A DNA stretch of 64,000 bases from contig CAZJHS010000001.1 in the NCBI GenBank assembly GCA_964545895.1, positions 33,167-97,166 of the forward strand, read 5' to 3'. Below, one piece after another: positions 10,222 through 26,384 of the stretch (positions within the stretch are counted from its first letter, which is position 1; each line of letters starts with the position of its first letter). Under the pieces are notes generated by a model that was not told the DNA's origin, did no database searches, and saw nothing but the letters and a program-made list of their open reading frames with translations. This stretch comes from an uncultured Chitinophaga sp. (lineage in GTDB: Bacteria; Bacteroidota; Bacteroidia; UKL13-3). The translations under genes and the position numbers were made by a program.

Positions 10222-10228
10222 TAAAAAG

Positions 10229-10308
10229 TACCCAGAGCCGGAATCGAACCGGCATGATTTCTCGCTAGTGTTTGAGACTAGTGCGTCTACCAGTTCCGCC
10301 ATCTGGGC
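10229..10308 (-). tRNA. tRNA-Leu (anticodon CAA), class II with a long variable arm
   Basis: The reverse complement reads GCCCAGATGGCGGAACTGGTAGACGC-A-CTAGT-CTCAAAC-ACTAG-CGAGAAATCATG-CCGGTTCGATTCCGG-CTCTGGGTA. It has a 7-bp acceptor stem, a GTTCGATTC T-loop and a CAA anticodon in the 7-nt loop. The 80-aa ORF in the track at 10060..10302 is spurious. Confidence 0.85.
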
Positions 10309-17225: not shown

Positions 17226-19886
17226 ATGAGAAAAGCCAAACAAAACATAATCAGTCCCATAGATAGCGAACCCAAAGATTTTGAGCGCGAAGAACCTGTG
17301 GTTGAAAAACCCAAAAAAGGAACCAAAGCGGCTGCAGAAAATAAACCGTTAAGGCTTACCTTTTTAAAAGACGAGCGCTTTTTAAAGGTTACGGGATTGG
17401 TGTTTTTGCTCACTGCGGTGTTTATGGGCTTTGCTTTTGGTTCGTTTATTTTTAGTTGGCAGTACGACCAAAACATTGCTAAAGGTTTAAGTTGGGATGT
17501 TTTTTTACAAAACGACCCTGATGCAGCAGAAAATATTTTAGGCAAGCTTGGCGCTTGGGTAGCATATACTTTTATGTACAAAGGTTTTGGCTTGGCCTCG
17601 TTTGCGTTTGTACTTATTTTTGGGTTGATAGGCATAAAACTTATTACCGATACCACTCCGCTGCCTATTATGAAAACCGTGCGATTTAGCTTTTTTGGAG
17701 TAGTATGGCTATCGGTAACACTTGGGTTTATTTTTACTGATGTTTGGCAAATATTAGGCGGTGCTTTTGGGCACTTCGGATATTTATATCTTAAAACTTT
17801 AATTGGTACTGTAGGGGCTGGTTTCTTACTTATTTTTTATTTTCTGGTATTTTTGGTGGTGGTGTTTAACATCAAATTTTATCAACCCAAACCTGCACCA
17901 GTTGAAATACCAAAAACTGAACCTGCCGAAGAGGAAACAAATCAACCCAACACAGCTTTAACCAACGCACTTAGCATAAACGAACTTTTTGCTGAAGAAG
18001 CCGGTGCTGAGCCTTTAAACCCAGATGATTTTGTATTAACGGTTAAGGAAGAAGAACAACCTGAGTTAACAGCTGAACCAATAGAAGAAGAGATTGCTCC
18101 TATAGAAGAAGCAACAATTGAAGAAGAACCTATTGCCCCAACTATAGATGAGCAACCCAAGGAAGAAGAAAACAATATTCCCATTGTACCGCTAGTTGCT
18201 GCCGGTGCTTTGGCATCAACCCTTGCAAGTGCATTAACTCCTGAGCCTACCGAGCCACCGAGTGTATTAACTACTGATAGCGGCTTAGTTTTGGAAGTGC
18301 AAGAAACGCCCGAAGAGGATGAGGAAGTAATGGAAAAGCCTGAATATGGTTCGATTGATAGCGAGTACGATCCGACCTTAGATTTTAGCAATTACCAGTT
18401 TCCAACTTTAGAGTTACTAAACGATTATGGTGGCGAAAGCAAATCGACTGTTGAAGCAGCCGAGTTGCAGATAAAAACTAAAATGATTGAAGATACCTTG
18501 AAAAATTACAACATAGGTATCAAAAAAATATCAGCAACCATTGGCCCCACTGTAACGCTATACGAAATTGTACCACAAGATGGGGTGCGTATTGCCAAAA
18601 TTAAAAATCTTGAAGATGATATTGCTTTAAGTTTAGCCGCATTAGGCATTCGTATTATTGCGCCTATTCCGGGCCGTGGTACTATTGGTATTGAGGTACC
18701 AAATGAAAAACCTGCCATGGTAAGCATGCGCAGTGCGTTAAGCAGTGCACGTTTTCAAAACTCTGATATGGACTTACCCATTGCTTTTGGTAAAACCATA
18801 CAAAACGAAGTGTTTGTGGCCGACTTAGCCAAAATGCCTCACTTACTTATGGCAGGTGCTACAGGTCAAGGTAAATCTGTTGGGTTAAATGCCATCTTAG
18901 TTTCGTTGTTGTACAAAAAACATCCATCGCAAATTAAGTTTGTATTGGTCGATCCTAAAAAAGTAGAGTTAAGCATTTATAAAACTATTGAGCGACATTT
19001 CTTAGCTAAAATTCCGGGCGATGCCGATGCGATTATTACTGATACTAAATTAGTAGTAAATACGCTTAACTCACTTTGCGTAGAGATGGATAGCCGTTAC
19101 GATTTGTTAAAAGATGCGCAAGTACGTAACTTAAAAGAATACAACGCTAAATTTATTAGCCGCAGATTGGTACCTACTGATAAAATGCCACATCGTTTCT
19201 TGCCATACATTGTGGTAGTTATTGATGAGGTAGCAGATTTAATGATGACTGCTGGTAAAGAAGTAGAAATGCCTATTGCACGTTTGGCGCAATTAGCACG
19301 TGCTATTGGTATACATTTAATATTGGCCACACAACGTCCATCTGTAAATGTAATTACCGGTATGATTAAGGCAAACTTCCCGGCACGCGTGGCTTTCCGT
19401 GTATCGCAAAAAATAGATTCACGTACCATTTTAGATGCCAATGGTGCCGACCAATTAATTGGTAAAGGAGATATGCTTTATACCGTGGGCAACGATTTGG
19501 TGCGCTTGCAATGTGCTTTTGTTGATACACCTGAAGTAGATAAAATTGCCAACTTTATTGGCAACCAACAAGGCAAAGAACCATACATGTTGCCTGAGGT
19601 TAAAAATGAAGATAATGGTGAAAACGGACCAGCCGAAATTGACCCACGTGAACGCGATAGTTTGTTTGAAGAAGCAGCACAAATTATTGTGCAACATCAG
19701 CAAGGATCAACCTCATTATTACAACGCAAATTAAATTTGGGTTACAACCGTGCAGGCCGATTAATTGACCAACTAGAACGTGCAGGAATTGTTGGACCAT
19801 TTAAAGGCAGCAAAGCCCGCGAGGTATTGGTAAGCGATATTATGCAACTTGAAGATAAGTTAGCGGATTTGAGAGATAGAGGTTGA
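17226..19886 (+). CDS. ftsK: DNA translocase FtsK/SpoIIIE
   Basis: N-terminal TM helices, a Pro/Glu-rich linker, a motor domain with Walker A GATGQGKSV, and a C-terminal winged-helix gamma domain (STSLLQRKLNLGYNRAGRLIDQLE). Confidence 0.9.
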   Translation: MRKAKQNIISPIDSEPKDFEREEPVVEKPKKGTKAAAENKPLRLTFLKDERFLKVTGLVFLLTAVFMGFAFGSFIFSWQYDQNIAKGLSWDVFLQNDPDAAENILGKLGAWVAYTFMYKGFGLASFAFVLIFGLIGIKLITDTTPLPIMKTVRFSFFGVVWLSVTLGFIFTDVWQILGGAFGHFGYLYLKTLIGTVGAGFLLIFYFLVFLVVVFNIKFYQPKPAPVEIPKTEPAEEETNQPNTALTNALSINELFAEEAGAEPLNPDDFVLTVKEEEQPELTAEPIEEEIAPIEEATIEEEPIAPTIDEQPKEEENNIPIVPLVAAGALASTLASALTPEPTEPPSVLTTDSGLVLEVQETPEEDEEVMEKPEYGSIDSEYDPTLDFSNYQFPTLELLNDYGGESKSTVEAAELQIKTKMIEDTLKNYNIGIKKISATIGPTVTLYEIVPQDGVRIAKIKNLEDDIALSLAALGIRIIAPIPGRGTIGIEVPNEKPAMVSMRSALSSARFQNSDMDLPIAFGKTIQNEVFVADLAKMPHLLMAGATGQGKSVGLNAILVSLLYKKHPSQIKFVLVDPKKVELSIYKTIERHFLAKIPGDADAIITDTKLVVNTLNSLCVEMDSRYDLLKDAQVRNLKEYNAKFISRRLVPTDKMPHRFLPYIVVVIDEVADLMMTAGKEVEMPIARLAQLARAIGIHLILATQRPSVNVITGMIKANFPARVAFRVSQKIDSRTILDANGADQLIGKGDMLYTVGNDLVRLQCAFVDTPEVDKIANFIGNQQGKEPYMLPEVKNEDNGENGPAEIDPRERDSLFEEAAQIIVQHQQGSTSLLQRKLNLGYNRAGRLIDQLERAGIVGPFKGSKAREVLVSDIMQLEDKLADLRDRG

Positions 19887-19921
19887 TGAGATAATTTGTA
19901 GATGCGATAATCAGATAAATC

Positions 19922-20418
19922 AAACCTCGTAGAGGTTTGATATCGATAAACCATATCCTTCAGCTAATCCCTCAACGCCTTTAGGTGTTGCACGTTGTAT
20001 AGCTTACTTGATATGCAACCCCTAACGGGGTTGGTATGGCAAGTGTGTTTTACTATTACCAATATGCAACCTCTTCGAGGTTGTTTTACTACGAATAAAT
20101 TGCCATTAATTGTTTTCCCCTACTAAATGCTCAAAACCTCGTAGAGGTTTCATATCGGTGAACCATATCCTTCAGCTAATCCCTCAACGCCTTTAGGTGT
20201 TGCACGTTGTATAGCTTACTTGATATGCAACCCCTAACGGGGTTGGTATGGCAAGTGTGTTTTACTATTACCAATATGCAACCTCTTCGAGGTTGTTTTA
20301 CTACGAATAAATTGCCATTAATTGTTTTCCCCTACTAAATGCTCAAAACCTCGTAGAGGTTTCATATCGGTGAACCATATCCTTCAGCTAATCCCTCAAC
20401 GCCTTTAGGTGTTGCACT
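19922..20418. repeat. Tandem direct repeat of a 212-bp unit, 2.3 copies, with 3 SNPs between copies 1 and 2 and copy 3 truncated. Each unit holds three related hairpins.
   Basis: The unit starts (…aaa)acctcgtagaggttt… at 19924, 20136 and 20348. The hairpins are aaacctc-gta-gaggttt, caacccc-taa-cggggttg and caacctc-ttc-gaggttg; the third is followed by TTTT. Confidence 0.9.
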
Positions 20419-20516: not shown

Positions 20517-21041
20517 ATGAAACACCTATCATTAAAACTTTCGTTGACACTGTTTATTGCATTTACATTTATGGGTTGCCGCAGAGACGATGCACTTGCT
20601 GTGTTAACAGAAGGAAAATATCAGATGCTTTATTCAAACCCAGAAATTTTATCTGTGCACAGTAATTTTGATACAACATATTTAATGCCGTATGATCTAT
20701 TCTACTTAGCAAAAGTTTCCGAAAACAACTTTAACTTTCATAGTTTCATCTATCAATCAAACCAAGTAAAAGTTTTGCCTTGTGTACTTGGCCATGTAAC
20801 CACATTAAACACCAAAATTACATTTACTAAATTACAGCCTAATAAAGCAAATACATTAAACGACTCTTGCTTTATTGATTTACAAAACGATACGGGAAGT
20901 GTAACTATTTTAGATGCGAAATTTAACAAAGCAGGCGAAATTATCGGAAATTGTTACGCATATATCATCTTTAGAAAACCAAATTATGATTACGTACTTT
21001 ATAAATGCAAAGCCAATTTTGTAATGAAAAAATTTGATTGA
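20517..21041 (+). CDS. Hypothetical lipoprotein
   Basis: Signal peptide with lipobox (LFIAFTFMGC). No recognisable family. Confidence 0.45.
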   Translation: MKHLSLKLSLTLFIAFTFMGCRRDDALAVLTEGKYQMLYSNPEILSVHSNFDTTYLMPYDLFYLAKVSENNFNFHSFIYQSNQVKVLPCVLGHVTTLNTKITFTKLQPNKANTLNDSCFIDLQNDTGSVTILDAKFNKAGEIIGNCYAYIIFRKPNYDYVLYKCKANFVMKKFD

Positions 21042-26012: not shown

Positions 26013-26383
26013 GGGGCTGACCGGAATTGACGGGGTGAGCATCTGGCGGGTAAGCACGTAGCGCATTGAGCTGTTGGCGCTTAAATATCAATACTCAAAC
26101 AATTATTTGGCGAAAATAACTTCGCTATGGCTGCCTAATCAGGAAGATTACGCATCATGCCATTGTCTCGCAGGTGTTAGCTTAACCGCGCTTGTATCAG
26201 AGGCATCATTAGGAAAAGCCTTTTGGCCAACCGCCTTTGTTGGTTAATTGAACTTAATGGGCTACGGAATTTTTTGGCAGGTTTGGCGGCCTGAACTTTC
26301 TCGACAATTAACGCTTTACTAAACGTGTAGAAAGCTTGACCATTCCACCTCCGGACCAGGGTTCGAATCCCTGCAGCTCCACC
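26013..26383 (+). ncRNA. ssrA: Transfer-messenger RNA (tmRNA, SsrA)
   Basis: 5' end GGGGCTGAccggAATTGACGGGG. 3' end GGACCAGGGTTCGAATCCCTGCAGCTCCACC (T-arm plus acceptor stem). The internal tag reading frame ggc gaa aat aac ttc gct atg gct gcc TAA gives GENNFAMAA*. The 87-aa ORF at 26177..26440(-) is antisense to the tmRNA and spurious. Confidence 0.92.
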
Positions 26384-26384
26384 T

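Follow-up and report, generated by a model that had tools for sequence, protein, structure and literature searches.

What is the repeated sequence that fills the space downstream of ftsK in an uncultured Chitinophaga species? It lies in a stretch of 64,000 nucleotides (hereafter the window; contig CAZJHS010000001.1, positions 33,167 to 97,166), and a preliminary description had left open a tandem small-RNA (sRNA) gene, an array of protein-binding sites, a site for FtsK-linked recombination, and an element of the miniature inverted-repeat transposable element (MITE) or repetitive extragenic palindrome (REP) type. Our analysis favors the last of these. The array is probably a cluster, similar to a bacterial interspersed mosaic element (BIME), of REP-like single-stranded DNA (ssDNA) elements, each consisting of a short tag and a hairpin, which belong to a dispersed family and have been amplified locally.

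The window contains a single strong tandem array. Tandem Repeats Finder (TRF) placed it at 19922-20417, with a period of 212 nt, 2.3 copies, 98% matches, no indels and a score of 971; the remaining arrays of the window scored 46 or less. A repeat search showed 99% identity between 19922-20133 and 20134-20345, and three in-register copies of a 72-nt sequence starting at 19922, 20134 and 20346. Copies 2 and 3 of the 72-nt sequence are identical, and copy 1 differs from both at 3 positions, the same as the single-nucleotide differences reported earlier between the first two units. The 212-bp repeat, its 2.3 copies and its 212-nt periodicity were thus borne out, with the array beginning at 19922 and not, as first given, at 19924. 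The array takes up most of the 630-nt gap between ftsK and the next open reading frame (ORF).

Each 212-bp unit carries four hairpins. The three in the preliminary description are present, and a fourth, imperfect one (CAACGCC-TTTA-GGTGTTG) had been missed. The core AACCYC-N3-GRGGTT occurs 5 times, every time within the array, against 0.14 occurrences expected. The 630-nt spacer as a whole holds 10 hairpins, all intergenic, each with a 7-bp stem and a 3-4-nt loop. All four hairpins of the unit are tagged (on the tag strand, RATATG precedes the stem on its 5' side), so that a module can be written as a 5' tag, YTAC-N1-2-RATATG, followed by a 7-bp stem with a 3-4-nt loop. The internal sub-repeat atatgcaacc that had been pointed out is real, and it is part of this tagged module rather than a mere local duplication. 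Read on the tag strand, module a is TTCACCGATATG followed by AAACCTC-TAC-GAGGTTT (- strand), module b is CTATACAACGTG followed by CAACACC-TAAA-GGCGTTG (- strand, one mismatch), module c is CTTACTTGATATG followed by CAACCCC-TAAC-GGGGTTG (+ strand), and module d is ATTACCAATATG followed by CAACCTC-TTC-GAGGTTG (+ strand) and TTTT.

The modules are arranged in the orientation <- <- -> -> within the unit, and in full the array runs <-a <-b (21 nt) c-> d-> (about 50 nt) <-a, continuing in the same order, with hairpins of the same orientation spaced 51 nt apart. The spacer of about 50 nt between d and the next a consists of the TTTT run (20084-20087) and an A+T-rich linker. Modules a and d are about 88% complementary to each other, and b and c about 85%. 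Along the array the order is (a1 b)(c d a2 b)(c d a2 b). On both strands, folding of the unit is stronger than that of shuffled sequences (z = -5.2 and -5.7), and such equal folding of the two strands is what is expected of DNA palindromes. No tag-plus-hairpin module was found elsewhere in the 64-kb window.

Do these modules belong to a wider family? An exact scan of one genome per species with the pattern ATATGCAACCYC-N3-4-GRGGTTG returned at least 118 loci, mostly in Bacteroidales and other Bacteroidota metagenome-assembled genomes (MAGs); they are referred to here, like all loci below, by L numbers. Many of the loci had several modules, and their recurrent tags were CTACAGATATG, CTACCGATATG and CTATTGATATG. 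Many of the matches listed were four-module clusters with the layout <- <- -> -> (L034, L052, L106, L068 and L017/22/58/61) or -> -> <- <- (L054, L085, L062 and the L023 group), and the genomes RGIG3361 and HAN063 each held several loci. The same hairpin "species" (CAACCCC, CAACCTC, AAACCTC, AACGCC, AATCCCC and AATGTCC) are repeated in distant genomes. The idea that the unit might be unique to this spot holds within the about 73 kb of the source genome that were covered; modules of this kind are found in many other genomes of Bacteroidota. A literature search on the tag and hairpin strings returned only primers in unrelated papers, and we found no paper describing either.

Many of the matches in rumen Bacteroidales belong to a separate, unrelated MITE of about 240 nt, bounded by terminal inverted repeats, and were left out of the argument. 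This MITE has inverted repeats TTGTTGTCCGCTAAA(T/A)T at its ends and ATATGCAACCTCTCCGAGGTTG inside, and it occurs in rumen Bacteroidales MAGs (L036, L076, L065, L099, L125, L110, L013 and L080) at many loci, spread over several genomes, with 84-94% identity. A composite consisting, in this order, of a long, GC-rich CCCGGGG…CCCCGGG hairpin, CTAC-NN-ATATG and the CAACCCC hairpin was seen at L040, L044, L096, L111, L070 and L083, in MAGs of Sumerlaeia, Bacteroidales, Acidobacteria, Verrucomicrobia and others. These composite loci suggest that related tagged-hairpin families exist outside Bacteroidota.

One locus, L104, ties the modules to a transposase gene. There, a module begins 4 nt past the end of a gene's stop codon, the gene product being a 152-aa protein with HIH, SWQ and YIENQENHH motifs. 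Homologs of this protein were found by tblastn in 8 of the 118 listed motif-selected loci, in 7 of these 8 within 350 nt of the motif. Module-adjacent proteins from other genomes match PF01797 (Y1_Tnp) with E values of 1e-25 to 4e-30; they score 71-78 bits against the IS200/IS605 model NF033573 (cut-off 55), and 24.8 bits, below the cut-off of 80, against the RayT model NF047646. The module-associated proteins are 146-153 aa long with HxH, W(Q) and YI.NQ..HH motifs, matching the description of Y1 subclass 1.2. This subclass was reported to be low-copy, not insertion sequence (IS)-like, found mainly in Bacteroidetes and Cyanobacteria, and without REPs, with a mean of 1.7 copies and divergent paralogs at 36% identity (Quentin et al. 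2018, PMC6006769). A group named "RAYT-like IS200 Group 3" (RAYT, REP-associated tyrosine transposase), with no duplicates and abundant flanking 16-mers (Bertels et al. 2017, PMC5581495), may be the same enzyme group. The Bacteroidetes REPs of subclasses 2.6 and 2.4 tabulated in PMC6006769 were also considered and rejected as relatives, their sequences being unrelated.

A second, independent set of 80 metagenome loci was picked solely because they encode a relative of the L104 protein. In these loci, the density of perfect hairpins is 4.7/kb in the 300 nt around the Y1 gene and 1.2-1.8/kb elsewhere, a 3-4-fold difference. The pentamer CTACC occurs 105 times in the 16-nt flanks of hairpins near the Y1 gene versus 6 times for hairpins more than 800 nt away, and TCTAC, TACCA/TACCG, ATATT and GATAT are also enriched in the near-gene flanks. 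The family consensus tag is TTTCTA(C/T)C(A/G)ATAT(T/G), ending 7-9 nt before the stem, and the canonical family module is the tag TTTCTACCAATAT plus a hairpin. At least one module tagged TTTCTACC(A/G)ATAT lies within 400 nt of the Y1 gene in 69 of the 80 loci. When a CTACC[AG]ATAT tag is present, a perfect hairpin with 5 bp or more follows in 84% of cases, versus 1.6% in shuffled controls. The stems of the family end in CCC, and the loops are TAC (52), TAAC (27), TGAC (23), TAAA (10) and others. Stem sequences vary from locus to locus, indicating that pairing is conserved rather than sequence. Of 83 pairs of neighboring modules that point the same way, 64 have a spacing of 48-54 nt. The modules on the two sides of the Y1 gene point in opposite directions (72:15 upstream and 54:33 downstream), giving <- <- gene -> ->. 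Taken together, these data show that the tagged hairpins of the family are associated with Y1 genes.

The window modules share the features of this family. Their tag-to-stem distance is 7-8 nt (7-9 nt in the family), modules a and d contain the tag core ACC(A/G)ATATG, and each of the loops TAC, TAAC, TAAA and TTC is also known from the family, in whose orientation it lies. The spacing of 51 nt falls within the family peak of 48-54 nt, and the paired inverted layout is also shared. Most telling is module a, which had been absent from every search pattern; its 20-mer, ATGAAACCTCTACGAGGTTT, is nevertheless identical at 20 of 20 positions in the protein-selected loci L136 and L141, where it lies 11-12 nt past the Y1 stop codon, and 19 nt of it are found in L142. 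The chance of such a 20-mer match in the approximately 0.57 Mb searched, both strands included, is about 5e-7. In L141 and L142 the hairpin on the opposite side of the Y1 gene, ACGCC-GTA-GGCGT, resembles module b. Membership of the window modules in a dispersed tag-plus-hairpin family that flanks Y1 genes elsewhere upholds the MITE/REP-like alternative of the preliminary description. Its proposal of a protein-binding-site array survives only insofar as the modules are presumed substrates of a Y1 enzyme.

Is the element a conserved part of the ftsK locus? Orthologous loci were fetched through FtsK homologs with 81-87% identity, and the spacer after ftsK lacks the element in L129, L130, L132-L134 and L215-L217. 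In L129 the gap after ftsK is 58 nt with a plain terminator hairpin, and in L130 to L134, L216 and L217 the content after ftsK is different. In L215, ftsK is followed by a homolog of the lipoprotein gene of the window (54% identity), and the 218-nt spacer between them contains zero modules and has no blastn similarity to the window spacer. As judged from these sequences, the element would therefore have been gained in the lineage of the window, or else lost everywhere else. By the refuting condition that the preliminary description itself had set, its absence from the ftsK spacers of relatives goes against the reading as a conserved sRNA; it also speaks against a site linked to FtsK.

The 3' flank of ftsK is itself a variable hotspot in close relatives, the gene order of the window being common only to L215. 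In L129 it holds AhpC/Rho directly, L134 and L215 have ParD/ParE toxin-antitoxin pairs there, L217 has a Gp49/HTH pair, and L216 has PAP2 and other genes. A distinct repeat of about 90 nt, GGGCGTGCC…GGTCGGG(C/T)T.TTC…ATCCCTCACGCGG, lies directly after the ftsK stop codon in L132 (6690-6800), L215 (5720-5810) and L217 (5670-5700); it has no Rfam match and is not in the window.

Contigs encoding an identical 174-aa protein downstream carry 1.3 copies of the unit in L001 and L002 (418-nt gap) and 2.3 copies in L004 (630-nt gap), which suggests a copy-number polymorphism among contigs of the same species. The 1.3-copy form is a1-b-c-d-a2-b, and the 2.3-copy form gains b-c-d-a2 (equivalently c-d-a2-b). 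Unequal exchange between the two a-b repeats of 72 nt would produce this gain and would account for the fact that only the first a differs. In L004 and L002, the linker has a G-to-A change that is present in each copy within a strain. Many k-mer contigs end inside the repeat; L128 ends 13 nt after the ftsK stop codon, and L003 and L005-L008 begin at the equivalent of window position 20388. Because assemblies break at or in the repeat, short-read copy numbers for this spacer call for long reads before they can be trusted.

We propose the following mechanism for the BIME-like cluster, modeled on the established biochemistry of TnpA(REP) with REPs and of IS608 TnpA (PMC3333891, PMC8266576, PMC6006769). 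The hairpin of each module would form in ssDNA, and a Y1 enzyme, putatively encoded elsewhere in the source genome, would recognize tag and hairpin on ssDNA at the replication fork. Cleavage and rejoining by this enzyme would seed modules into intergenic spacers. The 212-bp periodicity would be secondary and local: the basic cluster a1-b-c-d-a2-b holds a 72-nt direct repeat (a-b), and unequal crossing-over or replication slippage between the a-b repeats could duplicate b-c-d-a2, much as BIMEs are amplified in E. coli. Any effect on the expression of ftsK or the downstream gene, such as termination or stabilization of the ftsK transcript by its 3' hairpins, would be a side effect.

Several points weigh against this interpretation. 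The window tags are TTAC, TCAC, TTAC and CTAT, none of them the canonical CTAC. Scores against a position weight matrix (PWM) of the family are modest (d, 3.2; a, -2.0; background 95th percentile, 0.05), although the matrix is dominated by a forced CTA[CT] anchor and under-scores TTAC and TCAC tags, and is thus weak evidence either way. Neither a Y1 gene nor a second cluster was found in about 73 kb of the source genome (the window plus about 9 kb of flank), and tblastn with the L104 protein gave no Y1 homolog in the window. The published Y1 survey gives subclass 1.2 as being without REPs (PMC6006769). The difference between 1.3 and 2.3 copies could reflect collapse of the 212-bp repeat in short-read assembly. 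Finally, the GTAG/GTGG guide of REPs, 0-2 nt from the stem, is not present. Since the modules have no GT[AG]G at the stem base, and the enzyme is not of the RayT type, we call them REP-like and not REPs.

The main alternative is a MITE-type origin, in which the gene-less <- <- -> -> unit (a b, a 21-nt inner gap, c d) is an internally deleted, non-autonomous derivative of [<- <- Y1 gene -> ->], itself a mobile element with inverted hairpin ends. It differs from the REP-like explanation mainly in whether the enzyme is domesticated or not. The short inner gap of gene-less units is exactly the place of the gene in gene-bearing loci, where the hairpins closest to the gene adjoin its start and stop codons and repeat one another in inverted form (L148, L189, L206); NCBIfam also places the proteins among IS200/IS605 transposases and not RayT. 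However, solitary clusters show the reverse layout, -> -> <- <-, just as often (L054, L085, L062), the ends of IS200/IS605 elements are not inverted repeats, and subclass 1.2 is low-copy with divergent paralogs and not IS-like (PMC6006769). No target-site duplication was visible at the ends of the array. We consider a MITE-type origin unlikely.

Could the array be RNA instead, either a tandemly duplicated sRNA gene or a cis-acting RNA of the ftsK 3' untranslated region, with multiple hairpins and an end at hairpin d and its U-tract? The TTTT directly after hairpin d and the better-than-shuffled folding of the unit would fit such an RNA, as would the G·T position in hairpin b, which becomes a G·U pair in RNA of the + strand. 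However, the fold z-scores are equal on both strands, as DNA palindromes would give, and the modules and their tags face both ways, an arrangement for which an RNA would have no need. Rfam gave no match to the region at the gathering score; at E <=10 it returned only mir-282 and CRISPR-DR31, both far below threshold, and at the gathering score on 18 and 3 further related loci it left the modules uncovered. A tRNA/tmRNA scan of the array region found none. Hairpin d with its TTTT failed the terminator scan, and within the units no terminator and no sigma-70-like promoter was called. Moreover, the family tracks a DNA transposase gene, and orthologous spacers lack the element. The suggestion of a tandem sRNA gene with its own terminator thus finds little to sustain it, and we regard an RNA function as very unlikely.

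Two other readings of the repeat were rejected. The 43-aa ORFs at 19995-20126 and 20207-20338 were considered as a coding repeat; however, the spacing of family modules shows no preference modulo 3 (remainders 0/1/2 = 32/23/28), and only in 16 of 33 cases does the ATG frame stay open as far as the next module. The earlier conclusion that this is not a CRISPR array stands, as the hairpin sequences are not identical, both orientations occur, and the would-be spacers recur with the unit.

A neutral, recent duplication of an ordinary spacer with terminator-like hairpins, whose resemblance to Y1-associated hairpins is coincidental, would agree with the near-identity and hence recency of the copies, with the degenerate window tags, and with the single cluster in about 73 kb. 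It would leave to coincidence that four modules share the tag core, tag-stem distance, loops, orientation and 51-nt spacing of the family, that module a matches Y1-adjacent hairpins of independent loci without a mismatch, and that the identical four-module layout is found in distant genomes. Such a duplication seems to us highly improbable. An array of binding sites for a chromosome-organizing or recombination protein tied to FtsK (Xer/dif-like or KOPS-like) is barely conceivable, because it has in its favor only the position beside ftsK and about 6 kb from dnaA, while the ftsK flanks of relatives lack the element, family members adjoin unrelated genes, and compensating stem changes point to recognition of structure and not of duplex sequence; the recombination role once envisaged for the locus is abandoned with it.

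The coordinates of the features are collected below.

Features of the array in the ftsK downstream spacer and its flanking genes (window coordinates)
Feature	Position	Strand	Basis
Whole array, 2.3 tandem copies of the 212-bp unit	19922..20417	.	TRF, repeat search
Module a1: AAACCTC-GTA-GAGGTTT at 19922-19938, stem extendable to 19919-19941	19922..19952	-	sequence
Module a1, whole: tag diverged, GATATCGATAAACC on + strand; a1 holds the 3 copy-1 differences	19922..19952	-	
Module b, copy 1: hairpin CAACGCC-TTTA-GGTGTTG, imperfect (one G·T), tag CTATACAACGTG on - strand	19973..20004	-	
Module b hairpins alone	19973-19990, 20185-20202, 20397-20414	-	repeat search
Module c, copy 1: tag CTTACTTGATATG and hairpin CAACCCC-TAAC-GGGGTTG (20016-20033)	20003..20033	+	
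Module d, copy 1: tag TATTACCAATATG and hairpin CAACCTC-TTC-GAGGTTG (20067-20083), then TTTT	20054..20087	+	
A+T-rich linker between d and next a, no hairpin	20088..20133	.	
Module a2: AAACCTC-GTA-GAGGTTT (20134-20150), tag GGTTCACCGATATG on - strand	20134..20164	-	
Module b, copy 2	20185..20216	-	repeat search
Module c, copy 2	20215..20245	+	
Module d, copy 2, and TTTT	20266..20299	+	
Module a2, copy 3, identical to copy 2	20346..20376	-	
Module b, copy 3: hairpin complete, repeat stops at 20417 inside tag region	20397..20417	-	
ftsK (context only, outside the element)	17226..19886	+	
Lipoprotein-like gene, 174 aa, no Pfam match (context only)	20517..21041	+	

The neighborhood of the array includes a tmRNA gene at 26013-26384 (+), with the tag GENNFAMAA, and a tRNA-Leu(CAA) gene at 10228-10308 (-). 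The dnaA gene lies at about 11.6-13.0 kb (-), about 4 kb upstream of the start of ftsK, and from this proximity the locus is probably near the replication origin.

What does the array mean beyond this locus? The locus itself is an ordinary kind of repeat-element cluster. A repeat-element explanation takes the place of a new sRNA next to ftsK, with a copy number that is sensitive to assembly. For the family, the link to Y1 enzymes may be new, and this link to subclass 1.2, the long conserved tag and the fixed spacing appear to make it a new variant of the REP/Y1 theme. It is quite possible, if not yet probable, that the array is a member of an undescribed, phylum-wide REP system of CTACC(A/G)ATAT-tagged hairpins in pairs about 51 nt apart, serviced by Y1 enzymes of subclass 1.2. 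Distant Bacteroidota share the tag and even individual hairpin sequences, whereas the REPs of Proteobacteria evolve fast and are species-specific; if the proposal is right, this would imply an old partnership between enzyme and hairpin, maintained vertically or horizontally. To our knowledge, almost everything that has been worked out on REP/RAYT biology comes from Proteobacteria, and the family would, if the proposal is right, offer a second system, and a tractable one, in which to study the domestication or dispersal of ssDNA hairpins by HUH enzymes. The defined 10-nt tag and the fixed spacing would make the system testable with oligonucleotides. They would also provide a simple annotation signature for the intergenic repeats of Bacteroidota MAGs that break short-read assemblies.

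How does the family compare with known systems? The closest parallel is the REP/BIME (REPIN) system of E. coli and Pseudomonas with its RAYT/TnpA(REP) enzymes, which likewise consists of short, extragenic, GC-rich hairpins with a conserved 5' tag. As in BIMEs, the modules are clustered in alternating orientation and show variable tandem amplification, with the caveat that the copy count may reflect assembly collapse. As in a REPtron, members of the family lie in inverted orientation on the two sides of a single Y1 HUH transposase gene, and their stems vary while pairing is kept. Unlike REPs, the family has a tag of about 10 nt, CTACC(A/G)ATAT, located 7-9 nt from the stem, where REPs have GTAG/GTGG at 0-2 nt; its hairpins and tag are conserved across very distant Bacteroidota and are not species-specific; its modules are paired at a fixed spacing of about 51 nt; and its enzyme scores as an IS200/IS605 TnpA, below the RayT cut-off.

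The ends of IS200/IS605 elements and the PATE-type MITEs offer a second comparison, with a Y1_Tnp enzyme (at the family loci) and no target-site duplication (in the window). IS200/IS605 elements have subterminal hairpins that are recognized as ssDNA, and a short motif a few nucleotides 5' of the hairpin; the left-end hairpin of IS608 has TTAC upstream, and TTAC is literally found among the window tags. In contrast to the family, in which the flanking hairpins are inverted with two on each side, the left-end and right-end hairpins of IS200/IS605 lie on the same strand, and the subclass to which the family's gene belongs is reported as low-copy and not IS-like (PMC6006769). Finally, Quentin et al. 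listed "no" REP for subclass 1.2, whereas here 69 of 80 loci encoding such enzymes carry tagged hairpins.

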